From: Gemmatimonadales bacterium
GTDB lineage: Bacteria > Gemmatimonadota > Gemmatimonadetes > Gemmatimonadales > JACORV01
Reading direction: 5' to 3'
Length of the DNA stretch: 64,000 nt
NCBI GenBank assembly: GCA_036493755.1
Contig: DASXPG010000028.1
Location: 138 to 64,137, forward strand
Part shown: positions 7,673-55,760 of the stretch, in pieces
Numbering within the stretch: the stretch's first letter is position 1
Layout: each line of letters opens with the position of its first letter
Translations under genes and position numbers: made by a program
The notes under the pieces: generated by a model
Databases searched by the model: none
Told to the model about the DNA's origin: nothing
What the model saw: the letters and a program-made list of their open reading frames with translations, nothing else

Positions 7673-8706
7673 CAGGCTCCGCGCTCTCCGGCGAGATCCC
7701 GCGGCAGCTTGTCGAGAAGCTTCTTGAGATCGGGGGCCTTCGCCGCCGTCGTCACCAGGGTGACGCCGTGCGCGCGCACCACCACCGCGCCTTCGATGCC
7801 GAACACGACCGTCGGGCCATCCTCACTCCAGACCACGCAGTCCTTCGCATCGACCAGGTGCGCCATCCCCACGGCGATGTTGCCCGCGGCATCGGCGTTA
7901 CGCACGCGGCGGAGCGCGGCCCACGAGCCGACGTCGTCCCAGAGGAAGCTTCCTTCGATCACGGCGCCGCGGCTGGTCCGTTCGAAAAGCCCGACGTCGA
8001 TGCTGACCGGCTTCAGCGCCTTGAAGGCCGCCGCGGCGTCGCCCTTCTCGAAGAGCGGGAGGGCCGGCGCCAGCTCCGGCGTGTGCGCCACCAGCTCGGC
8101 CTTGAGCCGCGCCGCGGTCCAGGCGAAGAGGCCGGTGTTCCAGAGCGCTCCCTCGGTGATCAGCCTGCGCGCGGCGTCCTCCGTCGGTTTCTCGACGAAG
8201 CGGGCGATGCGCTTGCCGGTGCCTAACGGCTTGCCGGGGACGATGTAGCCGTAGCCGGTCTCGGGACGCACCGGCGTGGCGCCGACGGTCACCAGCACAT
8301 CCTCGCTCTCGGCCAGCTCGATCGCGCGGGTCGCGGCGGCACGGAATCGCTCGGCATCGCCGACCGCCCAGTCGGCGTGCATCGACAGCACCGACGCGGC
8401 GCTGTCGGCCTGCGCGGCGTGCGCCGTGGCCCAGGCAAGCGCCGGCGCGGTGGACGCGGCCCGCGGCTCGGCCAGCACATTTTCGGGCGGCAGCATCGGC
8501 AGCGCGTTACGGGTCGTCGCCTGGAGCGTCTTCGACGTGACGATCAGCACCCGTTGCGCGGGAATGAGCGGCAGAATGCGGCGCACCGCGTCGAGCAGGA
8601 GCGATTCGGAGCCGGCGAGATTGAGGAACTGCTTGGGTGCGGTCGCGCTCGAAAGAGGCCAGAAGCGGGAGCCGACGCCGCCGGCCAGGACGACGGCCCA
8701 GCGCAT
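7672..8706 (-). CDS. Mannose-1-phosphate guanylyltransferase-type nucleotidyltransferase
   Basis: The N-terminus AVVLAGGVGSRFWPLSSATAPKQFLNL carries the GGxGxRxWPLS signature of ManC/CpsB-type enzymes. There is a 1-nt TGATG overlap with the downstream gene. Confidence 0.85.
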   Translation of the reverse strand: MRWAVVLAGGVGSRFWPLSSATAPKQFLNLAGSESLLLDAVRRILPLIPAQRVLIVTSKTLQATTRNALPMLPPENVLAEPRAASTAPALAWATAHAAQADSAASVLSMHADWAVGDAERFRAAATRAIELAESEDVLVTVGATPVRPETGYGYIVPGKPLGTGKRIARFVEKPTEDAARRLITEGALWNTGLFAWTAARLKAELVAHTPELAPALPLFEKGDAAAAFKALKPVSIDVGLFERTSRGAVIEGSFLWDDVGSWAALRRVRNADAAGNIAVGMAHLVDAKDCVVWSEDGPTVVFGIEGAVVVRAHGVTLVTTAAKAPDLKKLLDKLPRDLAGERGA

Positions 8707-8707
8707 C

Positions 8708-9118
8708 TCAGCCCTCTCCGCCGATTTCGGCGTCGGGATCGTCGCCCAGCAGTCCGGCGATCTGGCGGTAAAGCTTCTTGGGCGAGAACGGCTTGGTGAT
8801 GATCGCCGCGGCGCCCTTCTCGCGCGCTTCTTCGACCTGGCCGATCTGGCCGGCCGCGGTGAGCACGACCATCGGAATCTTCGCCAGCCGCGCGTCCTTG
8901 CGGGCCTGAACGAGAAACTCGACGCCGGTCATGCCGGGCATGTTGAGATCCACGAGGACGCAGTCGATGTCGGTGTGCTGGCCGAGCGCGACGAGCCCCG
9001 CGGCGCCGTCGGGCGCCAGCGAGACCTTGTAGGGCCCGCGCTCGAATTGCATCCGCACGATTCGGCCGATGTGGGGTTCGTCATCGACGACGAGCAAATG
9101 GTGGGACGGTCCAGCCAC
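8708..9118 (-). CDS. Single-domain response regulator (CheY-like receiver)
   Basis: LLVVDDEPHIGRIV..., the phospho-acceptor context CVLVDLNMPGMTG, VVLTAAG and KPFSPKKL. GTG start at 9118, directly abutting the upstream stop. Confidence 0.85.
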   Translation of the reverse strand: MAGPSHHLLVVDDEPHIGRIVRMQFERGPYKVSLAPDGAAGLVALGQHTDIDCVLVDLNMPGMTGVEFLVQARKDARLAKIPMVVLTAAGQIGQVEEAREKGAAAIITKPFSPKKLYRQIAGLLGDDPDAEIGGEG

Positions 9119-9523
9119 CTAGAGCAGTCCGGCGATCTCCGCGCGGTGGCGGCTCAGATCGTAGAGCAGGGGACCGGCGTTGGTGCGCGGCCGCAGCATC
9201 ACCAGCAGCTTGGCGTCGCTGGACAGATTGGTGAGGATCGCGAGCCCCGAGGCGAATTCGATCACCCCGGTGGTCATCGCGCCGCGCCCCGCATGGTGAC
9301 CGAGCTGCTCGGTGGCCTGAACCACGTTCGGCACGAGCGCCGACAGTACCTCGGCATCCACGCCGTTGGCGGAGTGGCTGGCGATCGGCAGACCATCGTT
9401 GCCGAGGAGAATCACCGCCTCGACGCCCTCGCGGCGACCCAGGGCGTCAACGACGTCACGAATGCTGGCCATGATCCCCATCGTAGGAGGCCCCGGGGGC
9501 TCTGTCAAGCATTGTGACGACAT
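9119..9523 (-). CDS. Roadblock/LC7 (MglB-like) domain protein
   Basis: About 120-aa core (VEAVILLGNDGLPIASHS...GAMTTGVIEFASGLAILTNLSSDAKLLVMLRPRTNAGPLLYDL) typical of the roadblock/LC7 fold. The start is uncertain; internal ATGs are available. Confidence 0.75.
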   Translation of the reverse strand: MSSQCLTEPPGPPTMGIMASIRDVVDALGRREGVEAVILLGNDGLPIASHSANGVDAEVLSALVPNVVQATEQLGHHAGRGAMTTGVIEFASGLAILTNLSSDAKLLVMLRPRTNAGPLLYDLSRHRAEIAGLL

Positions 9524-9565
9524 TGCATGCAGGCTCTAACTCGTCTATTCTTCGAATCTTGCGCC

Positions 9566-10162
9566 ATGTCTGACCTTATGCGACGGTACCCGTGGCTGAC
9601 GGCCCTCGCCGCCAGCGCCTGCCTCGTGGGCTGCGGCAGCGGCATCGACGTGCCGCCGGCCACCACGGCGGTTACCCAGCAGCAGATCCACCTCTATGCC
9701 ATCGCTGGTACGCCGGTCGGAACGCCGTCGGCCTACGACATGGTCCAGCTCGGCGAGGTGCAGATTTTCCGCAGCAACAGCTGGGACTATGTCTTCGATC
9801 TCGGTCCCGACAGCAGCTACGGCCTCGGCACCACCGGCGACACCATCGCGGTCATTCTGCCGCGAGGCTACTTCGGCTTCGCCGAGGACGGCGGCGTGAT
9901 CTGGACGCTGTCGTCGTTCGACTCGGTGCTGGTCGCCCCGATCATCGGCTACGAGCAAAAGAAGGCGACCCGCGTGCGCGCGGGGGACACCTTCCTTGTT
10001 TCCTCGCGTGCCCAGGCCTGCAACTTCGGCGTCAGCCGGCCGCTCTACGCCAAGGGCCTGATCCAGTCCATCGACCTGGTCACCCGCAGCGCGGTGATCC
10101 TCATGGAAGTCGATACCAACTGCGGATTCATCGGCCTCGGCATAGGCATTCCAACTCACTGA
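9566..10162 (+). CDS. Hypothetical lipoprotein
   Basis: Signal peptide plus lipobox (LTALAASACLVGCGSG). The start could be ATG 9566 or ATG 9578. No recognisable domain. Confidence 0.55.
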   Translation: MSDLMRRYPWLTALAASACLVGCGSGIDVPPATTAVTQQQIHLYAIAGTPVGTPSAYDMVQLGEVQIFRSNSWDYVFDLGPDSSYGLGTTGDTIAVILPRGYFGFAEDGGVIWTLSSFDSVLVAPIIGYEQKKATRVRAGDTFLVSSRAQACNFGVSRPLYAKGLIQSIDLVTRSAVILMEVDTNCGFIGLGIGIPTH

Positions 10163-45943: not shown

Positions 45944-46038
45944 GAAACGATTCCTGGAATCGCGGCCTCAATCATTAAAGTAAGCGGATCAACCGTACAG
46001 ATTATCGTGACGGGCGGCCATCGGCAATGGTCGGCCAT

Positions 46039-46067
46039 TTGACATTCCTTGCCGCTGCCGGGAGACT
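46039..46067 (+). promoter_or_regulatory. Candidate promoter of the hydroxylase/peptide/kinase unit
   Basis: A perfect TTGACA (46039-46044), then a 17-bp spacer, then GAGACT. It lies only about 6-10 nt before the GTG/ATG at 46073/46076, which would imply a near-leaderless mRNA. Weak. Confidence 0.25.
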
Positions 46068-46072
46068 AAGCG

Positions 46073-46951
46073 GTGATGGATCGGCTCTCGGATCTGGCGC
46101 ATCGGGCGGGCCTGGCGGTGCTGGCACAGGCCACCGGCTACGCGTTCCTCATGTACCTGGTCTTCTCGCTGCTGGTACTGTGGCTGGAGACCCGCCGAGG
46201 TGGGCGCGCCGGCCTGCTGCGCTCCCGCGCCTTCATGAACGATGTGCTGTACGCGCTCTTCTACCGGGGCGGTCTTTACGCCGTGTTCGTGTGGGCGTTG
46301 CTCGTCAATCTGTTCCAGCGGCAGCTCGCATTTCTGCAATTGGGGCTGCTACGTGACGTGCCGATGATTGTCTCGGTCCCTTTATACTGGCTGGTCGGTG
46401 ACTTCCTTTTTTACTGGTTTCACCGGCTGCAGCACCGCGTACCGGCATTGTGGGCATTTCATCGTGTTCACCACGCCGCGCAATCGCTGAACACCTTCAG
46501 CCAGAATCGCCGACATCCGGTCGAATACACGCTCAACAGCCTGGTGTTCTATCTGCCGCTGGCATTCGTGCTGGGCCTCTCGACCAAGTCGTGGGTCCCC
46601 TGGTTCATGACGGCACAGCTGCTCGAGTCGCTTCAGCATGCCCAGCTGGATTGGGGATTCGGGCCGTTGTACCGGCTGGTCGTAAGCCCGGTGTTCCACT
46701 CCATCCACCACTCCAGCGATCCCCGGCATTTCAACCGCAATTTCGGTCCGATGCTGAGCGTCTGGGACTATATCTTCGGGACCGCCGCGGCCGATGCCGT
46801 CAGACCTGCGCAGTACGGTATCGAGGGGACGGTGATGCCGGAATCGTTGGCCGCGCAAACGGTTGGTCCGTTCCTGGTGCTCGCGCGATCCGGCCTGCGG
46901 CTCGATGCCCCCACGTCGGCCGCGGCTGTAGAGCCTGCGCCGCCGCTATAA
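46073..46951 (+). CDS. Fatty acid hydroxylase / sterol desaturase superfamily membrane protein
   Basis: Multi-TM protein with the three His boxes of membrane di-iron hydroxylases (FHRLQH, HRVHH, HSIHHSSD). Confidence 0.85.
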   Translation: MMDRLSDLAHRAGLAVLAQATGYAFLMYLVFSLLVLWLETRRGGRAGLLRSRAFMNDVLYALFYRGGLYAVFVWALLVNLFQRQLAFLQLGLLRDVPMIVSVPLYWLVGDFLFYWFHRLQHRVPALWAFHRVHHAAQSLNTFSQNRRHPVEYTLNSLVFYLPLAFVLGLSTKSWVPWFMTAQLLESLQHAQLDWGFGPLYRLVVSPVFHSIHHSSDPRHFNRNFGPMLSVWDYIFGTAAADAVRPAQYGIEGTVMPESLAAQTVGPFLVLARSGLRLDAPTSAAAVEPAPPL

Positions 46952-47033
46952 CCTGGAGCATTGACGCATCGAGCCCCGCGCATCACCTTCTTGTTGCCGC
47001 GCACAGTCATCCGTCCTGTTTCCAGGGAGAGCC

Positions 47034-47150
47034 ATGCGTCCCGACGCCCAGAAGCGCCCGTACGAGCCGCCAACAGTCAAAGTGCTCGATGAGAGCGAAA
47101 TGCTGGCCCAGTTCCAGATCACCAGTGCCGGCACCAGCTGGTGGGGCTGA
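47034..47150 (+). CDS. Unannotated 38-aa ORF, a candidate RiPP precursor peptide: MRPDAQKRPYEPPTVKVLDESEMLAQFQITSAGTSWWG
   Basis: My own translation; the ORF is below the ORF-track size cutoff. ATG 47034 is preceded by AGGGAGAG, and the stop TGA is at 47148-47150. It carries a YxxPxV...VLD leader-like motif and a Ser/Thr/Trp-rich C-terminus. It is flanked by a kinase and lies near PqqD-like and AsnB-like genes. Confidence 0.6.
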   Translation: MRPDAQKRPYEPPTVKVLDESEMLAQFQITSAGTSWWG

Positions 47151-48129
47151 TCCGGCCGTCCACGCTGTAATTCCTTCGCACGATGAGCTGGCGTGCTTTG
47201 CGCGTCAGGCAGTCGGGCGCCGCTGGTATCGGTTTGCGGACGCGTTTCTCGCTCTGTCCGCGGATGACCCACCTTTTCTCGAACGGTTCCACGAGTTGTA
47301 TGGCGCGCTGGCGTCGGATTCCCCGCCGCCCGGCGCGACGGTGCTCGATTGTGTCCTCATCTCCGGTCAATCGGACCTGCCGGTAATCGTAGGGATCTCG
47401 TCACTCGGGAAGCCAGTGAACTCTCTGGCCGCACTGGTGACACGCACGGGCTATCAAGAGGCAGTCCCCGCGGAGCAATGGCAGCGGTTTCGCGCACCAC
47501 TCGCAACTCTCCCAGGGGTATCGATCAGTTGCGACTGGGTGCTTGCCGATCGCCATTCGAGCTGGCAGTGGCAGGTGGCGAACCTGGTGGTCAACCTCGT
47601 CCTCGCCCTCCAGCCTGAGTTCCTCTTCTTCCATGCGGGCGCCGTGAACCTCGGCGGTCGCGGGGTGCTGTTGCTGGGGGCAAGCGGCCGGGGGAAGACC
47701 AGTGTGGCGCTGGCGCTTGCCGGGCGGGGACATGTCTACTACGGAGACGAGATCGGTGCCGTGCGCGCCGCGACACGTGAACTGGTGCCGATACCGCGCT
47801 CGGCCATGGTGCGAGCGCCGGAAGTGCTCGGGGCGGATCCGGCGGCGCGGATTCGCGTGACCGTCGACCGTCATCCGCGGTATCCGGTCGCACTGGCGGG
47901 CCTGATTTGTCTGCGCGCATTCGCGGACCGGACGGTCCTTACACGGTCTCGACCCACTTCCGATATGCTCGGTTTGATTACTCCGATGTCCTGCTCACTG
48001 GCATCTCGCGGGCCCGCACAGCTGGCCCTCGATCTGCTCCGACTCATCGAGGACATTCCCTGTTACGTGCTGGACTCCGCATCGCCGGCCAGCGCCGCCG
48101 AAGCTATTGAGGCCGCATTGATGTCCTGA
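47089..48129 (+). CDS. HPr kinase-related P-loop kinase (HprK-like)
   Basis: FFHAGAVNLGGRGVLLLGASGRGKTSVALALAGRGHVYYGDEI matches the HprK/HprK-related kinase P-loop region. The start is uncertain. The first in-frame canonical start after the hydroxylase gene is ATG 47089, which is out of frame inside the 38-aa ORF. The next canonical in-frame start I see is a TTG roughly 200 nt downstream. Confidence 0.7.
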   Translation: MRAKCWPSSRSPVPAPAGGADPAVHAVIPSHDELACFARQAVGRRWYRFADAFLALSADDPPFLERFHELYGALASDSPPPGATVLDCVLISGQSDLPVIVGISSLGKPVNSLAALVTRTGYQEAVPAEQWQRFRAPLATLPGVSISCDWVLADRHSSWQWQVANLVVNLVLALQPEFLFFHAGAVNLGGRGVLLLGASGRGKTSVALALAGRGHVYYGDEIGAVRAATRELVPIPRSAMVRAPEVLGADPAARIRVTVDRHPRYPVALAGLICLRAFADRTVLTRSRPTSDMLGLITPMSCSLASRGPAQLALDLLRLIEDIPCYVLDSASPASAAEAIEAALMS

Positions 48130-49038
48130 CGCCCCCCCCGGACGTTTCCAGGCCCGAAGCCTCTGCGCCAATCGATCGACATCCAGAAACGTCAATACCA
48201 GCCATGTCTCCCCGACGTGGATGCTGAGAATGAGCATGATGCCCACCGCGAAAGCGAGCAGCACCGGCAGCAGGATTGCGCGGGCGATTTTCGAGAACAC
48301 CGCCAGCACGACCGACCATTCCAGCACTACCGTCACGATCCCGATGATCAGGCACAGCGTTGGGTGCGCTGCGAGCCAGAATGCCAGCGAGTGGAAACGC
48401 CACCTCGGGTCCAGCGCGAAAACAAGTAGCCAGCGACGAATGCTTTCGGCGCTGCTCCACCGCCAGCCACTTGCCTCGGCCTTCGCGAATGCGGCGAAGA
48501 GGTAGATCTGGGCAACGAAGAGCCAGGTGAGCCGGAGCGGCCAGCCATATCGCCACGACGGCTCATGATCTGAAGCCGGCGAACGCGGCCAGAGCTGGTA
48601 GCCGCCGGCGCCCGGTGCGCAGGCCAGAACCACCAGGATGAGCGGCGTGAGCGTCAGCCCGCGCGCAAAGGGCGTAGGTGTCCAGATGAAGGTTTCCAGC
48701 GGCGCGAGGTGATAGACGAGAAGGCTCGCGACCACGCAGGCCACGCGCGGGAGTACGCCGAGCGCCACGCATACCAGGGCGATGATCGCTATCGTTTGCA
48801 GGCTCTGCTCGAATACCGGGTGACCCGGGAAGAGCAGGTAGCGCCACCGGAGACCCGAAGGAATGCTTATCCAGAAGATCGGCAGCCCGGACACCGCCGC
48901 GTAGTTGCGGGAGAACATCATCCACAACGCGTGGAGCGCCACGAGCGACCGCACCCAGGTGAGATTCAGTGGCGACGCGGGCTCGAACCAGAATTCATCC
49001 CACAGCCGGCGCATCCGTTCTACCAGCCGATTCATCAT
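47995..49038 (-). CDS. HTTM-domain (vitamin-K-dependent gamma-carboxylase-like) integral membrane protein
   Basis: The start MMNRLVERMRRLWDEFWFEPASPLNLTWVRSLVALHALWMMF, followed by multiple TM helices, is typical of HTTM/SdpB-like proteins. ATG 49038 is in an ATGA overlap with the upstream gene. The 3' 135 nt overlap the convergent kinase gene. Confidence 0.7.
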   Translation of the reverse strand: MMNRLVERMRRLWDEFWFEPASPLNLTWVRSLVALHALWMMFSRNYAAVSGLPIFWISIPSGLRWRYLLFPGHPVFEQSLQTIAIIALVCVALGVLPRVACVVASLLVYHLAPLETFIWTPTPFARGLTLTPLILVVLACAPGAGGYQLWPRSPASDHEPSWRYGWPLRLTWLFVAQIYLFAAFAKAEASGWRWSSAESIRRWLLVFALDPRWRFHSLAFWLAAHPTLCLIIGIVTVVLEWSVVLAVFSKIARAILLPVLLAFAVGIMLILSIHVGETWLVLTFLDVDRLAQRLRAWKRPGGASGHQCGLNSFGGAGRRCGVQHVTGNVLDESEQIEGQLCGPARCQ

Positions 49039-49682
49039 TGTTGCGCTGGGAATGTGTAGAGGATAGTCCGCCGCATCGCAGCTGGATCGCGCGCCCGCGT
49101 CTCGACGTTCCAGTGCTCCCAATAGAGGCGAATGCCGACGAACGCGGTATTGGGAACGTCGTCGCGGTTTTGCCAGCGTCGGGCGAGGAGAAGGTGACTG
49201 GGCGCCGCGAGATCGCGGAGTCTCCGGGTCACCACGCCGGGCCACTGCCCGGCGCGAGCCGCGAGCCGCGCCGATTCGGTTTTTTTAAGCAGGAACGCGC
49301 CGACGCTGTCGCGCGCGGGACCGCTCAGCGAGTTGACGTTTCGCATGAGCCACGTGAGCAGCTCTTCGTAGGTGAATGGCTCCCAGGCGCGATAGTCGAT
49401 GGGGTATTCGTCGCCATTGCTGGTGACGGCGACGGCCTGAACCACGGCGTATGCTGAATCGGATACCTCGGTCGGACCGACGCGCTGCATGAGGCGCCAG
49501 TAAGAAAACGGCCAGAGATCGCGCTGAGAAATGCCCGCCAGGAATGAGACGCCCAGGATATAGGCGATGAAGCAATTGATCCAGCGGCGGCTTACAGCTT
49601 CGCCGCGACCGCCCGCGATGATCACGATCAGACCGAGTATGACGAAGCCGGCGAAGCCGAGTGCGGCAATGAGGTAGGTCAC
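49035..49682 (-). CDS. Hypothetical 2-TM membrane protein (partner of the HTTM protein)
   Basis: GTG 49682 (VTYLIAALGFAGFVILGLIVIIAGG) is in a GTGA overlap with the formyltransferase stop. Two TM helices precede a soluble domain. I recognise no family. Confidence 0.55.
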   Translation of the reverse strand: MTYLIAALGFAGFVILGLIVIIAGGRGEAVSRRWINCFIAYILGVSFLAGISQRDLWPFSYWRLMQRVGPTEVSDSAYAVVQAVAVTSNGDEYPIDYRAWEPFTYEELLTWLMRNVNSLSGPARDSVGAFLLKKTESARLAARAGQWPGVVTRRLRDLAAPSHLLLARRWQNRDDVPNTAFVGIRLYWEHWNVETRARDPAAMRRTILYTFPAQQ

Positions 49683-50575
49683 GCCGGGGCGGCCCGCCCG
49701 GCAGCCACGGCCGAAAGGTGCACCCGTCCATCGCGACACCAGAGTTCCCAGCCGTGGTCTCCACGGGTCACGATCCCCGGCCGTTCCAACGGATCCATGA
49801 CATCGTATCCATGCACCGATCGGTACTGCACTGGGCGACCGCGTTCATCCAGCAGCGGCTCATGAAAGCGTCCACACATCCCGGCGAGGAAATGCCAGAC
49901 CCGCTCGGCACTCCAGCTGTCGAACGCCACCATTGCCATGCCGGGGCGCACCGATGGCGCGCGCGTCGCGCTGGTCTCGTCTTGCTCCACCGGTGAGATT
50001 CCGTTCGCGAGCGCAATCAGTCCGATGCGGAAGAGATCGCCTCCGGCGGCCGAGGCCTGGAGGTACGCTTGCTCAACGGGGAGGCCTCGTGCCAGCGGCC
50101 AGCGACGCTGCGCCAGGATCGGACCGCTGTCGGCGCGCGCGGTCGCCACATGGAGTGTGATGCCTGTCTCGCGGTCGTCGTGGTAATAGGTCCAGAAAAA
50201 CGGATTCGCGCCGCGATGCCGCGGCAGCAACGAGGGATGCAGATTCACCACGCCTCGCGCCGGAAACTGAAGCACCTCGGCAGGAAGAACCCACGGAAAG
50301 AGTGCCACGCAGAGCAAATCCGGAGCGAGACGCGCCAGGCCCTGAAGAAGGCGCGGATCGCGGCGCGATGCGCAGCGAATCACCGGGATGCCTCGCTGCG
50401 CGGACCAGGCCGCTGCATCGTCGCCCAGCGCCGGACGACGGCGTACCATGCCAGCCGCGCGTGCGCGCCACCCGCCCTCGGGAAGCACCACCGCGGCGAT
50501 CTGGTGATCGCACGCGAGTGCCGTCAGCGAGTCGAGTGCAAGGGGTCCGCCGGTTGTGGCGAAGATGATCCGCAC
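49679..50575 (-). CDS. Formyltransferase (Fmt/ArnA-N-like)
   Basis: GTG 50575 gives an MRIIFATTGGP start, like Fmt. NLHPSLLPRHRGANPFFW is the formyltransferase catalytic box, followed by ADSGPIL. The listed start at 50689 would overlap the divergent gene. Confidence 0.8.
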   Translation of the reverse strand: MRIIFATTGGPLALDSLTALACDHQIAAVVLPEGGWRARAAGMVRRRPALGDDAAAWSAQRGIPVIRCASRRDPRLLQGLARLAPDLLCVALFPWVLPAEVLQFPARGVVNLHPSLLPRHRGANPFFWTYYHDDRETGITLHVATARADSGPILAQRRWPLARGLPVEQAYLQASAAGGDLFRIGLIALANGISPVEQDETSATRAPSVRPGMAMVAFDSWSAERVWHFLAGMCGRFHEPLLDERGRPVQYRSVHGYDVMDPLERPGIVTRGDHGWELWCRDGRVHLSAVAAGRAAPA

Positions 50576-50670
50576 GATACGTTCCTGCACGGCCGGAGGC
50601 GTGGCGGGTCTGACCGAGCAGCGAAGATGGGTGCAGTGCTTCGTGCCGTCAATCCAGAACAGGTGCCGGT

Positions 50671-51201
50671 GTGAGAGCTGACGCGGCACGAATCGAGGAC
50701 CCTCGGCTGCTGACCACAGCGGCCGAACTGTTCGCGCGCGCCGAGCGCACCATTGAGTGCTCGGTGCGCGGGACCAGCATGTCGCCCACGCTTCCGGACG
50801 GTTGCCGCATCCGGGTGCGGTGCGGGGTTCCGGCCCGCGTGCCCGTCGGCGAGATCGTGGTTCTCGCCGTCGCTCCGGGAATCCTCATCACCCATCGGGT
50901 GCTGAAGGCGCGAGGGTGGAATGGCGGCCGGGGCCATCTCCTGACGCAAGGCGATGGGGCGGTGCTTTGCGACGAGCCGATCCCGATGCGCGCGTTCGTC
51001 GGCTGCGTGATTGCCTTCGATGACGGCGCGGGCTGGATCGTCCCAGGGAATCGGCCACGACGGACGCTCGCGGCGCGATGGGGCGCCGCATCGCATCGGC
51101 TGCTCATCGCGGCCCTGATGGCCGTACATCCCGAGCTGGCGCGGCAGATCGCGCGCTTGTCGTACTTCCTTTGCGGGATTGATCCGCCGGCATCGGCTTG
51201 A
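50671..51201 (+). CDS. S24/S26-family serine peptidase, SipW/ER-type (Ser-His) signature
   Basis: RGTSMSPTLPDG (catalytic Ser box), GEIVVL and GILITHRVL. In the last box, bacterial SPase I and LexA have the catalytic Lys (KRV/KRL); a His at this position is typical of SipW/Sec11-type enzymes (from memory). Hydrophobic C-terminal tail. Confidence 0.65.
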   Translation: MRADAARIEDPRLLTTAAELFARAERTIECSVRGTSMSPTLPDGCRIRVRCGVPARVPVGEIVVLAVAPGILITHRVLKARGWNGGRGHLLTQGDGAVLCDEPIPMRAFVGCVIAFDDGAGWIVPGNRPRRTLAARWGAASHRLLIAALMAVHPELARQIARLSYFLCGIDPPASA

Positions 51202-51228: not shown

Positions 51229-51531
51229 ATGCTCATGAACAATGGAGAAGCCACGATGCGTTACCATCGCGCGCCCGGTATCGAGGCGGCACCGATGCAG
51301 GACGAGACCGTCCTCTTCGATCCGAATACGAAGAAGTTCTGCATCCTGAACGCGACCGCTGCGCACCTGTGGGAGTCCCTCGAACGGCCGTGTTCCGCCG
51401 CCGAGCTGGCCGCGTCGATCGTGGGAGCCTTCGACGGGGTCGACCCGAAGATCGCGGAGCGTGACGTCCAGGTCGCGCTGAAGGACCTGGTGGGCCTGGG
51501 CATCGTCGGCGCCAGCGGCGCGGACGCCTAA
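51229..51531 (+). CDS. PqqD-family protein (RiPP recognition element-like peptide chaperone)
   Basis: ETVLFDPNTKKFCILNATAAHLWESLERPCSAAELAASIVGAFD...AERDVQVALKDLVGLGIV is the classic PqqD/RRE pattern. The start is ATG 51229 or ATG 51256. Confidence 0.8.
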   Translation: MLMNNGEATMRYHRAPGIEAAPMQDETVLFDPNTKKFCILNATAAHLWESLERPCSAAELAASIVGAFDGVDPKIAERDVQVALKDLVGLGIVGASGADA

Positions 51532-51551: not shown

Positions 51552-52109
51552 ATGGAGTTGTCCGTTCGCGGGCGCGGCGATGCCGTCGCGACATTCCGTT
51601 TCATCAATGTCCATCTCATGGAAACACTGGCGGGCTGGGTCCCGACGACGCCGGAGCTGGAGGTCAAGGTCCTGTTCGGCCGCCATCTCTGGGATTTCGC
51701 GCAGCACGCCGACGCGTTCGGCAAGCGCGCGGCGGAGCTTCGTCTCCAGCTCCACGCTTCTCGCGCGCCGACCGCCGAATTGCAAGGCGTCCTCGATGAT
51801 CTGCGGAGGACAACGCGCACGGCGCAGCGGCTGGGGCGACTCTACCACGGCGTTGTCCCGGGTGTCGAACGGCTCTACACCGCGTACCTCGCGCAGGTCG
51901 ACGAGCTGATGGACGAGCCGACCGTCCGCATCATCGGGCACGGGCTGCTCGACACCGGTCGCATGGGGCGCGAAGCCGAAAGCCTGAGTGCTCAAGGCGG
52001 GCCGTCGCTGGAGAACGGCGCCGGATCCACGGCATCCGGCGGACCGTTCGGGTCACTCGATCGCGTGATCGACTTCCGGCCTGCGGTCGCCGCCGAGGCC
52101 GAGGCCTGA
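51552..52109 (+). CDS. Hypothetical helical protein, possibly a degenerate ferritin-like (DUF455-related) subunit
   Basis: By eye, HLMETLAGWVPTTPELEVKVLFGRHLWDFAQHADAFGKRAAELR parallels LEIAAQALVDFADAPWDLKLRLARQAADEARHTALLYRRLRELG of the next gene. The first ExxH reads FAQH, so one ligand is lost. Confidence 0.4.
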   Translation: MELSVRGRGDAVATFRFINVHLMETLAGWVPTTPELEVKVLFGRHLWDFAQHADAFGKRAAELRLQLHASRAPTAELQGVLDDLRRTTRTAQRLGRLYHGVVPGVERLYTAYLAQVDELMDEPTVRIIGHGLLDTGRMGREAESLSAQGGPSLENGAGSTASGGPFGSLDRVIDFRPAVAAEAEA

Positions 52110-52138
52110 GCGTCGCCACGGCGTTCGCCACCAGGGAA

Positions 52139-52921
52139 GTGCGAGGGGTCACGCTCCAGGAGGACCCCGCGCGCGAGCCCTGCTTCCACTGCGTTACGCT
52201 GGACTCGGAGATGCAGGAGTGGCCCGGGATGTCGGATATTTCCCGCCGCGAGCGCCTGCATCGCCACATGAACAACGAGTGCGGCGCGCTCGAGATCGCG
52301 GCCCAGGCCCTGGTCGATTTTGCCGACGCGCCGTGGGACCTGAAGCTTCGTCTCGCGCGCCAGGCGGCGGACGAAGCGCGGCACACCGCGCTCCTCTACC
52401 GGCGGTTGCGGGAGTTGGGCGGCACCAAGGGTGAATTCCCGGTCGCGAATATCGAGTGGGGCATTACCGGGATGATCGAAAACCTCGCGGGCCGGCTGGC
52501 GATCCAGAACCGGACTTTCGAGGCGGGACTCATCGACCTGCTGGGCAATCTGCGAAATACCTGGCGCGAAGCCGGTGATCACGCCACCGCCGACCTGCTC
52601 GACGGCATCCTCGCGGACGAGATCGTGCACGTCCGGTACGGCAATCGCTGGATTCGCCGCCTCACCGAGCAACGGCCGGCCGTATTGCTCCAGGTCGCGA
52701 TGGCGGTGCGTCTGCTGCGCCAGGCTCTGCGAGGGCTCGCGCCGGCGGACGGCGATGTCAATCGCTCCGGCCTGGTGCTCACGACCAAGCTACCGCCGGC
52801 GGTCTACGTATCCGGGCGGCTCGAAGCCGAATTCACGGAGGCCGAGGTCGAAGAGGTTCTGCGTCAGGCCGGATTCCGATCCATCCTTCCGCACCCACTC
52901 GTGGAGCAGGCCCGTGGCTGA
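52139..52921 (+). CDS. Ferritin-like di-iron protein (DUF455-like)
   Basis: Two ExxH boxes about 100 residues apart (ADEARH ... ADEIVH), an intervening conserved Glu (NRTFEAG), and an all-helical character. Confidence 0.6.
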   Translation: MRGVTLQEDPAREPCFHCVTLDSEMQEWPGMSDISRRERLHRHMNNECGALEIAAQALVDFADAPWDLKLRLARQAADEARHTALLYRRLRELGGTKGEFPVANIEWGITGMIENLAGRLAIQNRTFEAGLIDLLGNLRNTWREAGDHATADLLDGILADEIVHVRYGNRWIRRLTEQRPAVLLQVAMAVRLLRQALRGLAPADGDVNRSGLVLTTKLPPAVYVSGRLEAEFTEAEVEEVLRQAGFRSILPHPLVEQARG

Positions 52922-53660
52922 AGCCGTCGTCCCCCTCGATCCGGCCTTGTTCGGTCCCGGCCAGGCGCGTGACGCGCGCTTTACCGTGCGCGAACGCTGG
53001 GGCGAGATGGCCAATAACCCGCCGCGCACGCCCGCCTACCAACGGGAGTTTCTCCATCGCCAGGCCAATGAAGAGGCCAACGTCATGGAGCAGGCCGCGC
53101 AGAGTCTCGTGGACTTCCCGGACGAGCCATGGGAGATCCGCCTCTGCCTGGCACGCCAATGCGCCGATGAGGGCCGTCACGTCCTGCTCTACCTGCGCCT
53201 GCTGCGCGAGCGTGGCATCGGCATCGGCGAATATCCGGTGCTGAACTTCCAGTACCGCGTGCTGAGCCGCATCGACTCGCTGGTGGGCCGGCTCGCCGTG
53301 GAGAACCGGACCTTCGAGGCAGATGGGCTGGATGCCGCGACGTTCGGCGTCGCGGAGGCAAGGAAGGACGGCGACCATGCTCTCGCCGACGTACTCGACG
53401 CCCAGCAAGCGGACGAAATCGTGCATGTCGGGTTTGCCAACGCCTGGATCCGGCGCGAGGTCGAGCGCGATCCGCGCACCGTGTTGCGCATGGCAGCGGC
53501 GATCACCCGGGCCGCGCGCGCGTTCGCCACGGTGTTCGAAGGCGGCATGCAGGTGCGCTACCCGGTGGCGCAGGACGAGCGCCGAGAGGCCGGTTTTCAG
53601 GATCGGGAAATCCGGGTCGCCGCGGACCTGTCCGCTGCCCGGCGTCGCGGGGAGTCGTGA
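52914..53660 (+). CDS. Ferritin-like di-iron protein (DUF455-like), tandem paralog
   Basis: Same box pattern as the upstream gene (ADEGRH ... ADEIVH, NRTFEAD). GTG 52914 overlaps the upstream gene by 8 nt. The listed 361-aa ORF start is an out-of-frame extension. Confidence 0.6.
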   Translation: MAEAVVPLDPALFGPGQARDARFTVRERWGEMANNPPRTPAYQREFLHRQANEEANVMEQAAQSLVDFPDEPWEIRLCLARQCADEGRHVLLYLRLLRERGIGIGEYPVLNFQYRVLSRIDSLVGRLAVENRTFEADGLDAATFGVAEARKDGDHALADVLDAQQADEIVHVGFANAWIRREVERDPRTVLRMAAAITRAARAFATVFEGGMQVRYPVAQDERREAGFQDREIRVAADLSAARRRGES

Positions 53661-53664
53661 TGCC

Positions 53665-55572
53665 GTGTGCGGAATAGCGGGTTTCGCGAGCGCATCGCCC
53701 GATGCCGATGATGTAAATCGGCTCCGACGCGCGCTGGGAGTTCTCCAGCACCGCGGACCCGACGATGAAGGTTGGCTGACCCACCCCACCACCCCTGACC
53801 GCGGCCCGCTCGTCGGGCTCGGCAATCGCAGGCTCCGCATCATCGATCTCTCGCCTGGTGGCCATCAGCCCATGACGACGGCTGACGGCCGGTACTCCAT
53901 CACGTACAACGGCGAGATCTACAACTACCGCGAGCTACGCTCCGACCTCGAAACGGCCGGGCATCGCTTCGTGTCGAGCAGCGACACCGAAGTTCTGCTC
54001 CACGCCTGGGCCGCGTGGGGTACGGATGCCTTGCCGCGCCTGGACGGGATGTTTGCTTTTGCCATACTCGATCGTGTCGAGCAACGGCTGACGCTGGCAC
54101 GCGACCCCGCCGGGATCAAGCCGTTGTTCTTTCACGTCACGCTCCCGGACGCCATCGTGTTCGCTTCCGAGATCAAGGCGATTCGCGAGTTGCGGACCGT
54201 CGGCTCGCGCGTCAATCCAACACGCTTGAGAGATTACCTGGTCGAGCGCTTTACCGGTCGCGGCGACGCGACACTGCTGGAGGACGTTCAGCAGGTGCCG
54301 CCGGGTCACTATCTCACCGTCTCGCTGCGGCAGCCGGGCGTTCCTGCGCTAACGCGTTACTGGGAGTACGGCACCGAAGAAAGCCGCCCCGTGAGTTTCG
54401 CGTCGGCCGTGGACGAGCTTCGGGATCTGCTGACGGACAGCGTTCGCAGTCACCTGCGCAGCGACGTGCCGCTCGGCTTCTTGCTGTCCGGCGGCCTGGA
54501 TTCATCCTCGGTCCTGACGATCGCGCGCCAGGTGCTCGGTGCCGATGCCGATCTGCGAACGTACAGCTATATCGACGATGACCCGATGCTCAACGAGAGC
54601 ATCTATCAGGTGTGCGTGACGGCAGCGAATCGCGCGACACGTCATGCTGTCCGTGTCGAACCGGAAGAGCTGGTGCGGGACTGGGACCAGTTCATGGACA
54701 TCCAGCAGGAGCCGTTCTTCAGCCCGGTCGTGTACGTGCAGTACCGGGTATTGGAGCGCGCCCGCGAGGACGGCGTCAAGGTGATCCTCGGGGGCCAGGG
54801 CGCGGACGAGCTCTTCGCGGGGTACCAGCGGTTCGCGACCGCCCGCGCCGCCTCGCTCTGGCGCCAGGGCCGCTGGATGGACGCGGGCCGCCTCATCGGC
54901 TCGGCAGCGCAACGATGGCAAACGCCGCGGCTCTCGTTGATGCGAACCAGCCTTGCGCTCGCGCTGCCGCCGCTGGTGGCCGACGCCTATCGGGCGGTCC
55001 GCCATGCCGGGCGGGCGACCAGTGTGCCCGACTGGCTCAACACCGGTTGGTTCACGGGGCAGGGCGTGCCGCCCGTCAGGCAATGGTCTCCGGCCGGCGA
55101 TGACGTGCTGCGGGAATTCCTGGAATACACCCTGACGAGCACGCACCTTCAGGATCTCATGCGCTTCGAGGATCGCAGCGGGATGGCCCTGTCCATGGAG
55201 AGCCGCGTACCGTTTCTCGCGCCGCGCCTGCTGCGCTTCGCCTCGGCGTTGCCGGAGGAATTCCTCGTTTCGGAGAGCGGGAAGTCCAAGTTCATCTTGC
55301 GCGAGGCAATGCGCGGCTTGGTACCGGACGCGATCCTCGACCGGCGTGTGAAGGTCGGCTTCTCGGTGCCGGTTGTACGGTGGCTGGTGCAGTCCTCGTC
55401 GTGGGTTGAGGGCAAACTGGCGATGGCCGAGGATTGTCCCGCGGTGTTCGCGCCGGCTCTTCGCAGGCGCTGGCAACAGGTCCAGCAGGGTGACGTCGTC
55501 GGCGCATACGAGCTGTGGGGTATCTTCTCGCTGTTGACGTGGGCCGAGCGGGGGGCCATGCAATGGCAGTAA
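53665..55572 (+). CDS. Asparagine synthetase B-family glutamine amidotransferase
   Basis: The GTG 53665 start is followed by CGIAGF (the Ntn glutaminase Cys). Also HRGPDD, YNGEIYN, and the PP-loop LSGGLDSS in the synthetase domain. Confidence 0.9.
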   Translation: MCGIAGFASASPDADDVNRLRRALGVLQHRGPDDEGWLTHPTTPDRGPLVGLGNRRLRIIDLSPGGHQPMTTADGRYSITYNGEIYNYRELRSDLETAGHRFVSSSDTEVLLHAWAAWGTDALPRLDGMFAFAILDRVEQRLTLARDPAGIKPLFFHVTLPDAIVFASEIKAIRELRTVGSRVNPTRLRDYLVERFTGRGDATLLEDVQQVPPGHYLTVSLRQPGVPALTRYWEYGTEESRPVSFASAVDELRDLLTDSVRSHLRSDVPLGFLLSGGLDSSSVLTIARQVLGADADLRTYSYIDDDPMLNESIYQVCVTAANRATRHAVRVEPEELVRDWDQFMDIQQEPFFSPVVYVQYRVLERAREDGVKVILGGQGADELFAGYQRFATARAASLWRQGRWMDAGRLIGSAAQRWQTPRLSLMRTSLALALPPLVADAYRAVRHAGRATSVPDWLNTGWFTGQGVPPVRQWSPAGDDVLREFLEYTLTSTHLQDLMRFEDRSGMALSMESRVPFLAPRLLRFASALPEEFLVSESGKSKFILREAMRGLVPDAILDRRVKVGFSVPVVRWLVQSSSWVEGKLAMAEDCPAVFAPALRRRWQQVQQGDVVGAYELWGIFSLLTWAERGAMQWQ

Positions 55573-55760
55573 CGGTGTTTCCCGGGACGCCCGACACGGC
55601 CTGGATCAACGAGCTCAGCGACGAGGAGTGCATGGAGGTGTTCTGGCTCTACGTCGATCCGCCCGAACCATTCCTGAATGCGCACCCGGCCCCCTTGCTG
55701 GGCGCGGCGATGCGGCATGCGCTCCGGCTCATCGTGGCCGATCAGCGGGGACCGGCGTGA
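55563..55760 (+). CDS. Hypothetical 65-aa protein
   Basis: ATG 55563 overlaps the asnB-like stop by 10 nt. The stop is in a GTGA overlap with the next gene. The coupling suggests the ORF is real. No recognisable domain. Confidence 0.4.
   Translation: MAVTVFPGTPDTAWINELSDEECMEVFWLYVDPPEPFLNAHPAPLLGAAMRHALRLIVADQRGPA

Follow-up and report, generated by a model that had tools for sequence, protein, structure and literature searches.

A conserved trio of ferritin-like genes, two with complete predicted dimetal sites and one degenerate, in a putative peptide-maturation cluster

What do three consecutive genes for ferritin-like proteins do beside the apparent machinery of a ribosomal peptide? The question is raised by positions 51,552 to 53,660 of a 64,000-nucleotide stretch of contig DASXPG010000028.1 (hereafter the window, meaning the whole stretch analysed), which belongs to a Gemmatimonadota metagenome-assembled genome (MAG) of 3.15 Mb (228 contigs, GC ∼67%, 81% complete). 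The original prediction, read from the DNA alone, placed three consecutive open reading frames (ORFs) here, the last two being tandem paralogs of the DUF455 family and the first, of 185 amino acids, a degenerate relative that might serve as a non-catalytic partner; we call them orf185, DUF455a and DUF455b. Their coordinates were confirmed, and the paralogy of DUF455a and DUF455b is plain (47% identity over 174 amino acids, E 3e-44). GC at third codon positions (GC3) is 0.81–0.83 in all three, with codon-position GC as in genuine genes of the genome, and the GTG start of DUF455b lies inside GTGGCTGA, overlapping the DUF455a stop. The reading that we favour, with modest confidence, is that the trio forms a heteromeric di-iron oxygenase that oxidises the core of a precursor peptide encoded nearby, probably at a Trp–Trp pair. 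DUF455 had been described as lacking an established function, and none turned up: in the searchable literature we found no paper that assigns the family a function, links it to peptide maturation or places a ferritin-like enzyme in the pathway of a peptide that is ribosomally synthesised and modified post-translationally (a RiPP), the only true mentions of DUF455 being a fold-assignment survey and a proteomics match.

Both larger proteins belong to Pfam DUF455 (PF04305), whose gathering threshold is 34.3 bits. DUF455a scored 100.2 bits (E 1.9e-28) and DUF455b 84.7 bits (E 9.5e-24), scores that a genome-wide search for the family repeated (100.6 and 84.4 bits). Secondary Pfam matches were to Ferritin for DUF455a and to AurF for DUF455b, and a DUF455a profile matched bacterioferritins (E 1e-4) over a region spanning both ExxH boxes. 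The two ExxH boxes and the Glu of NRTFEA(G/D) that had been noted in each paralog were all found, as AADEARH, NRTFEAG and LADEIVH in DUF455a and as CADEGRH, NRTFEAD and QADEIVH in DUF455b. To these we add a Glu on helix 1, absent from the first reading, which completes a set of six proposed ligands: E47, E79, H82, E128, E161 and H164 in DUF455a and, placed via pairwise alignment to DUF455a, E54, E86, H89, E135, E168 and H171 in DUF455b.

The AlphaFold2 (AF2) model of DUF455a (predicted local distance difference test, pLDDT, 91.0; predicted template-modelling score, pTM, 0.87) distributes these residues over four helices, with E47 on helix 33–60, E79 and H82 on helix 66–92, E128 on helix 116–144, and E161 and H164 on helix 148–178. 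With DUF455b mapped onto it by pairwise alignment, both paralogs display the E / ExxH / E / ExxH pattern of ferritin-like di-iron proteins. We take E47, rather than the conserved acidic position 52, as the helix-1 ligand because the spacing of E47 and E79 (32 residues) mirrors that of E128 and E161 (33 residues). A sequence search of the PDB with a DUF455 protein returned no matching entry; Foldseek matches of the DUF455a model were almost all ferritin-like di-iron proteins and included aldehyde-deformylating oxygenase (ADO), bacterioferritin, PaaAC and Dps. The predicted placement in the ferritin-like superfamily, with the ExxH boxes at a four-helix-bundle metal site, has thus held up.

Conservation of the proposed ligands was followed across genomes. 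Scanning an orf185 alignment against one genome per species gave 72 loci from Gemmatimonadota, Acidobacteriota (Thermoanaerobaculia, Terriglobia, Vicinamibacteria), Pseudomonadota and Methylomirabilota, the Pseudomonadota including two cultured carriers, Ramlibacter monticola KACC 19175 and Sphingomonas antarctica CIP111604T. An alignment tally found all six ligands in 63/63 DUF455a orthologs, and among 62 DUF455b orthologs the single exception was Lys in place of E86. Equally invariant are the flanking Asp residues D78 (DUF455a)/D85 (DUF455b) and D160/D167, and the Asn-Arg ahead of the helix-3 Glu. The exceptional protein, from an Acidobacteriota MAG (locus L020, 11379–12140), reads DKARH rather than DEARH and is the sole ligand deviation in the set. 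DUF455a and DUF455b are very probably dimetal ferritin-like enzymes and, as far as sequence and model indicate, each paralog carries a complete carboxylate-bridged dimetal site, most likely di-iron.

That the three genes belong together is evident from their distribution. With the window proteins mapped onto the loci, the order orf185, DUF455a, DUF455b was kept in 64 of the 66 loci with enough sequence to count, and DUF455a and DUF455b meet in a 4-nucleotide start/stop overlap in 35/58. Of 301 Gemmatimonadota genomes sampled, the 11 with an above-threshold DUF455 match were exactly the 11 with strong orf185 matches; each carries two adjacent DUF455 copies, except for one fragmented assembly with three matches, and DUF455 in this sample is confined to the trio. 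A maximum-likelihood tree (IQ-TREE quick search, with support from the SH-like approximate likelihood-ratio test, SH-aLRT) gathered 62/62 DUF455b proteins in one clade (99% support) and 60/63 DUF455a proteins in another (97%), and the internal groupings of the two clades are broadly alike. From the separate clades of the paralogs, and from the presence of one of each at every locus, it follows that the duplication is older than the spread across phyla; the pair is ancient and non-redundant, and both copies are retained everywhere. Pfam DUF455 as a family shares with these proteins the ligand pattern on a predicted four-helix bundle; what is different here is the obligate pair with a degenerate third member, inside a peptide-maturation cluster.

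Five loci (L009, L013, L031, which is Ramlibacter monticola, L073 and L118) represent a cluster variant in which a further DUF455 gene, the third, lies upstream of the kinase gene described below. The third copies, from Burkholderiales and Terriglobia loci, branch beside the DUF455a clade, and the precursor peptides recovered in L009 and L031 have Cys around the Trp–Trp pair (...ASCWWGACSVGCP).

The first gene of the trio is far more diverged. orf185 had no match at E ≤ 0.01 in Pfam or NCBIfam and did not reach the Pfam DUF455 threshold, BLASTP detected no similarity to DUF455a or DUF455b, and its family profile found chance-level matches only among PDB sequences. It represents a genuine conserved family, with 401 homologous proteins at E ≤ 1e-3 and 1010 proteins in a profile search of 1.84 billion representatives. 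The AF2 model (pLDDT 93.5, pTM 0.90) has long helices at residues 5–32, 36–62, 90–115 and 122–147 and a 27-residue B–C crossover containing a short helix, and forms the up-down-down-up four-helix bundle of ferritin-like proteins. Its best Foldseek matches in the PDB were PaaC, YciF, a 'ferritin-like fold' protein, Dps and chain B of the toluene-4-monooxygenase hydroxylase (T4moH), with template-modelling (TM) scores of 0.54–0.65 and E-values of 0.03 or weaker; the top 50 matches (TM 0.5–0.65) were mostly ferritin-like, the remainder being related helical bundles (TenA, CADD, PqqC).

Homology of orf185 to DUF455 emerged at the profile level. Aligned with hhalign, the orf185 family profile alone gave E-values of 0.018 and 0.09 against DUF455a and DUF455b (probability <3%), which is too weak; the homology is made credible by adding the N-terminal domains of distant relatives to the profile, after which DUF455a was matched over 117 columns with 73% probability (E 3e-5). 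Weak Pfam matches on individual orf185-like domains, to DUF455 (E 0.008, P0275) and to Phenol_Hydrox (E 3e-4, P0337), agree in direction. The original prediction had aligned DFAQH of orf185 by eye with DEARH of its neighbours; the residues are as read, within WDFAQH, and the distant-relative profile arrives at the same register (D48-F49-A50-Q51-H52 on D78-E79-A80-R81-H82 of DUF455a, WDFAQH on WDEARH), but the similarity seen by eye is invisible to BLASTP, Pfam and NCBIfam. The same alignment sets LLDTGRM of orf185 on LADEIVH of DUF455a. At the equivalent of E79 orf185 proteins have Phe or Leu (F49), at that of E128 Tyr (Y98; 68/70), at that of E161 a hydrophobic residue (position 135) and at that of H164 Met, Gln or Leu (position 138), so that no fewer than four of the six ligands are missing. 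The remnants are H52 (57/70) and a helix-1 Glu, E24, which aligns with E52 of DUF455a and not with E47. Replacement of the ligands, together with the profile homology, leads us to regard orf185 as a distant homolog of DUF455 whose metal site has been dismantled, as had been proposed.

That orf185 acts as a partner, also part of the original prediction, agrees with its near-universal adjacency to the paralogs, the perfect co-occurrence at genome level and the existence of natural fusions. Proteins of 410–550 amino acids (P0276, P0297, P0301, P0304, P0308, P0332 and P0337) join an N-terminal orf185-like domain (E 1e-17 to 1e-31) to a C-terminal DUF455 domain in which DEARH and ADExxH are intact, and single-ORF fusions lie in four loci (Table 1). 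In the manner of a Rosetta stone, the fusions support physical association of the two kinds of domain, and we consider it probable that orf185 is the non-catalytic partner in a complex. Seven metagenome loci (L139, L140, L142, L143, L151, L156 and L159) have the reverse order, with a DUF455-like match before the orf185-like one; L140, the one reverse-order locus whose ORFs were inspected, contains separate adjacent genes for 262, 117 and 205 amino acids (7818–9622). An apparent in-frame TGA in the orf185 of two genomes proved to be merely the terminal stop.

PaaC and the beta subunit of toluene-4-monooxygenase are iron-free paralogous partners of catalytic di-iron subunits. The trio resembles PaaA/PaaC and toluene-4-monooxygenase alpha/beta in combining ferritin-like subunits of these two kinds, and the structures that best match the orf185 model include PaaC and T4moH chain B, just as those matching DUF455a include PaaAC. 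It differs from them in sequence (13–19% identity only), in having two ligand-complete subunits where they have one, and in its presumed substrate, which is a ribosomal peptide where theirs is a CoA ester or a hydrocarbon.

What such a complex would act on is suggested by the genes around it (Table 1). The conserved neighbours of the trio are an HprK-like kinase, which in 62/65 loci lies directly upstream of orf185, a precursor peptide, a PqqD-family RiPP recognition element (RRE), within 3.5 kb of orf185 in 63/65, and an S24/S26 (S26) peptidase, homologs of which are present in all 40 of the loci that extend 8 kb or more to either side, the set used for all accessory-gene counts. The peptidase is a probable leader peptidase, by analogy with the related clusters discussed below. 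Of the context on which the original prediction had based its suggestion of peptide or amino-acid oxidation, a PqqD-like chaperone on one side and an amidotransferase on the other, the PqqD gene is conserved; the amidotransferase, an asparagine-synthase (AsnB) homolog found within 10 kb in 36/40 loci, takes no fixed position relative to the trio.

Table 1. Features of the window and single-ORF fusions in other loci
Feature	Position	Strand	Remarks
orf185	51552..52109	+	185 aa, ATG start; degenerate ferritin-like partner subunit (predicted)
DUF455a	52139..52921	+	260 aa, GTG start; ferritin-like di-iron subunit (predicted)
DUF455b	52914..53660	+	248 aa, GTG start; second ferritin-like di-iron subunit (predicted)
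Precursor peptide, MRPDAQKRPYEPPTVKVLDESEMLAQFQITSAGTSWWG	47034..47150	+	38 aa; candidate substrate
HprK-like kinase	47125..48129, start uncertain	+	Hpr_kinase_C E 4e-6, HprK_rel_A E 3.6e-8, both below cut-off
S24/S26 (archaeal signal-peptidase-I-like) peptidase	50671..51201	+	Peptidase_S24 E 9.6e-4, sigpep_I_arch E 9.4e-7, below cut-off
PqqD-family RiPP recognition element	51229..51531	+	Pfam PqqD E 5.7e-12; ends 20 nt upstream of orf185
Glutamine-hydrolysing asparagine-synthase homolog (AsnB)	53665..55572	+	TIGR01536 418 bits, above cut-off; Pfam Asn_synthase and GATase_7
Membrane FA_hydroxylase-family protein	46073..46951	+	homolog in locus L001 annotated PF04116; accessory
Formyltransferase, two-transmembrane (2-TM) protein and HTTM membrane protein genes	47995..50575	-	Formyl_trans_N E 1.2e-23; HTTM E 4.1e-4, below cut-off
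Single-ORF fusion	L082 8001-9365		contig/genome, in frame
Single-ORF fusion	L099 7962-9203		contig/genome, in frame
Single-ORF fusion	L161 7030-8412		contig/genome, in frame
Single-ORF fusion	L163 6549-7931		contig/genome, in frame

Homologous precursor ORFs were found in ∼60 loci and lie within 3 kb of orf185 in 60/65. Their leaders follow the pattern YxxPx[VIL] ... E.[ED][IV]L..FQ[IVL], usually with Thr next, FQ[IVL] being invariant. After the leader come some five small residues, then WW, which is invariant and was seen in all precursors recovered, and lastly a tail that is short and variable (G, GM, GAC, TMGVTCPCT and others), the cores amounting to 7–20 residues. No NCBIfam model matched any of three precursor peptides searched. 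Cleavage of the window peptide after T30, by analogy with the clusters described next, would leave SAGTSWWG. We lean towards the precursor as the substrate of the trio, and we point to WW as a likely site because nothing else in the core is invariant and because, apart from the enzymes shared with the related clusters, no enzyme but the trio is; that the Trp residues are themselves modified is a tentative proposal. A lasso-peptide interpretation of the locus was rejected: the core lacks an Asp or Glu acceptor, the AsnB homolog keeps the Cys2 nucleophile of a glutaminase and matches the true asparagine-synthase model, and a B2-type cysteine protease is missing.

The related clusters are those for linear polyphosphorylated peptides (LPPs) of Bacillota, lppA-K-B-S-D-N, in which the functions of the kinase, the RRE and a signal peptidase I (SpI)-like peptidase, LppS, have been demonstrated (Popov et al., Nat Commun 2026, PMC13381572). 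There the kinase polyphosphorylates core Ser3 and the peptidase cleaves after Thr-1, in clusters composed of an SpI-like peptidase, a free-standing RRE, a kinase resembling HprK, an NTP transferase, an MsbA-like exporter and a precursor with a YxxPxV...FET leader; neither ferritin nor DUF455 is mentioned (PMC13381572). The present loci resemble these in their set of RRE, HprK-like kinase and SpI-like peptidase (the kinase and peptidase matches of the window being below cut-offs) and in the leader motif, in which the spacing from Y to F is 4 residues longer. They differ in their cores, which are short with an invariant WW where those of LPPs are long and variable with a phospho-Ser3, and in their hosts, Gemmatimonadota, Acidobacteriota, Pseudomonadota and Methylomirabilota rather than Bacillota.

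A second parallel is offered by MbnB/MbnC and TglH/TglI, in which a multinuclear non-haem iron oxidase (MNIO) works with a non-catalytic partner on a leader-bound peptide, much as is predicted for the trio. The folds are different, a TIM barrel (DUF692) there and a ferritin-like bundle here, with no similarity in sequence or structure, and orf185 is a degenerate paralog of the enzyme, unlike the MNIO partners.

The PqqD gene has weak, below-cut-off NCBIfam matches to the PqqD chaperones of lasso-type and HPr-rel-A systems. The remaining genes of the cluster are accessory. The AsnB homolog, which begins (M)CGIAGF, is a predicted accessory tailoring enzyme; FA_hydroxylase is found in 28/40 loci, the formyltransferase in 29/40 and HTTM in 24/40. 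NTP_transf_5 lies outside the cluster of the window, with 3 copies elsewhere in the genome, and no exporter was identified in the cluster. Directly after AsnB, at 55563–55760 on the forward strand, a conserved protein of ∼65 amino acids (...AWINELSDEECMEVFWLYVDPPEPFL...) without a Pfam family is encoded; it is 66% identical to a 74-amino-acid ORF of locus L001 (15358–15582) and stands beside AsnB in at least 12 Gemmatimonadota loci. Its gene overlaps a long ORF called as phytoene/squalene synthase (55628-), the true start of which is probably later. Several Gemmatimonadota loci have, adjoining the cluster, a gene for a protein of 138 amino acids with a marginal Globin match (L001 3176–3592, reverse strand; 22.7 bits against a cut-off of 22; homologs in L007, L017 and L022).

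The gene order of the window, with the precursor and kinase genes apart from PqqD and the trio, differs from that of nearly all loci. Within 46000–51200 GC is 0.636–0.642 in the 2-kb bins covering 46001–50000, against 0.67–0.69 in most other bins, and GC3 of the FA_hydroxylase, kinase, HTTM, 2-TM protein and formyltransferase genes (0.74–0.79) is below that of most plausible ORFs of the window. The low GC and the altered order of this left half suggest rearrangement or relatively recent acquisition. Canonical starts in the kinase frame near the peptide gene are ATG at 47089 and GTG at 47125, both within the precursor ORF in another frame, and the scanned interval 47089–47278 contains no further one.

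From these observations we propose a widespread RiPP-like pathway whose class-defining modifying enzyme is the trio. PqqD would bind the YxxPxV leader of the ∼40-residue precursor, the HprK-like kinase would phosphorylate the precursor and the S26 peptidase would remove the leader. DUF455a and DUF455b would be two catalytic subunits of one heteromeric ferritin-like oxygenase, and orf185 its third, degenerate subunit, serving a structural or substrate-positioning role like that of PaaC for PaaA or of the beta subunit of toluene and methane monooxygenases. With O2 and an external reductant, this enzyme would oxidise the short core of the RRE-presented, probably phosphorylated precursor, its most probable target being Trp–Trp; the chemistry could be aromatic hydroxylation, 2,3-epoxidation to a hydroxypyrroloindoline, C–C or C–N cross-linking, or further oxidation to a quinone, and each catalytic paralog may serve one Trp. 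With no reductase gene nearby, the host would have to supply the electrons through a reductase of its own.

The end product can be imagined with much less assurance. PQQ (pyrroloquinoline quinone) derives from a Glu and a Tyr of PqqA, and mycofactocin from Val-Tyr; both pathways rely on chaperones of the PqqD type and on short precursors in which a motif of two residues is invariant. By analogy, the pathway might yield, in place of an antibiotic-type peptide, a small peptide-derived redox cofactor or chromophore in which Trp–Trp is oxygenated and cross-linked by the two di-iron subunits to a tryptophylquinone-like unit, a free counterpart of protein-bound tryptophan tryptophylquinone (TTQ). 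We regard both the product and its kinship to TTQ as speculative and rather improbable.

Several observations weigh against oxidation of the peptide by the trio. WW and the trio are tied to each other by correlation only. The Foldseek E-values of DUF455a are weak (0.006–0.05), and therefore no close solved structure is at hand. PaaABCE and the multicomponent monooxygenases encode a reductase and a ferredoxin or effector, whereas Pfam and NCBIfam scans of the window cluster and of the accessory genes of L001 revealed no reductase, ferredoxin or effector component. The fusions lie outside RiPP contexts: two of their loci are set amid genes for a GH38 alpha-mannosidase, GH106, GH3, an aldolase, a GFO/IDH/MocA oxidoreductase and an enolase-family dehydratase, and one stands beside two S9 prolyl oligopeptidases, from which it follows that the module is not intrinsically peptide-specific. 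Finally, NTP_transf_5 accompanies 30 of the 40 full-length loci, and a non-peptide group carried on the peptide could be the true substrate.

The last two points lead to the alternative that survives best, although we consider it unlikely: the trio would oxygenate a sugar, a nucleotide-derived or lipid group attached to the phosphorylated peptide, or a small-molecule co-substrate. The fusions are the closest relatives of orf185 outside the cluster, the formyltransferase, AsnB and the membrane FA_hydroxylase are, like NTP_transf_5, frequent companions, and phosphorylation and glycosylation have been predicted for related peptides (PMC13381572). What speaks for the peptide itself is that virtually no locus lacks the trio, whereas each candidate group-donating enzyme is optional (24–36 of 40), that the cluster of the window has no nucleotidyltransferase, and that WW is the only invariant core feature tracking the trio. 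The contexts of the fusions, glycosidases and sugar-acid genes in two loci and S9 peptidases in another, are inconsistent, and we rejected them as a functional hint.

Oxidation of the peptide could also follow a different division of labour, with one DUF455 paralog catalytic and the other joining orf185 as scaffold or in activation, or could fall on another core position, such as the Ser or Thr before WW or the C-terminus; we rate these possibilities as improbable. Heteromers of active and inactive paralogs are common among ferritin-like enzymes, as in yeast Rnr2/Rnr4, PaaA/PaaC and the alpha/beta subunits of bacterial multicomponent monooxygenases. DUF455b, one ortholog of which has Lys at a ligand Glu, also evolves faster than DUF455a, its orthologs being ∼43–67% identical to the window protein as against ∼48–72%. 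Set against this, both paralogs keep the six ligands across 62–63 orthologs from four phyla, which would be unexpected of a purely structural subunit, and orf185 provides an example of site loss in the same system.

An iron-storage, ferroxidase, peroxide-detoxifying (rubrerythrin- or bacterioferritin-like) or self-protection module travelling with the cluster is very improbable, for although bacterioferritin is the best sequence-profile match and some homologs are automatically named 'bacterioferritin' or 'rubrerythrin', the DUF455 proteins have 250–270 amino acids with additional conserved C-terminal elements, unlike ferritins of 160, they occur in the Gemmatimonadota sample only alongside peptide machinery, and gene order and translational coupling tie the trio to the kinase. 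Neither a rubredoxin domain nor a haem-binding Met motif was seen, although no search aimed at them was made.

Ferritin-like oxygenases with a degenerate partner are known, but none is known in which two ligand-complete paralogs and a degenerate one are dedicated to a ribosomal peptide. Among Pfam families DUF455 is an old one, automatically annotated in places as bacterioferritin or rubrerythrin, and the trio provides it with a genetically linked candidate substrate and chaperone, which makes its chemistry directly testable by co-expression and mass spectrometry; the two cultured carriers, R. monticola and S. antarctica, are likewise open to experiment. With two ligand-complete paralogs, one degenerate relative and natural fusions, the system is a clean example of subunit specialisation among ferritin-like proteins. 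If oxidation of the precursor by the trio is borne out, ferritin-like di-iron enzymes would join radical S-adenosylmethionine (rSAM), cytochrome P450, MNIO, alpha-ketoglutarate-dependent (alpha-KG) and haem-oxygenase-like di-iron oxidase (HDO) enzymes as peptide-modifying oxidases, and the loci would define a new class of RiPP, found in four or more phyla of soil bacteria that are mostly uncultured. Were the tryptophylquinone proposal also to prove true, DUF455 would gain its first function and RiPPs their first ferritin-like maturase.

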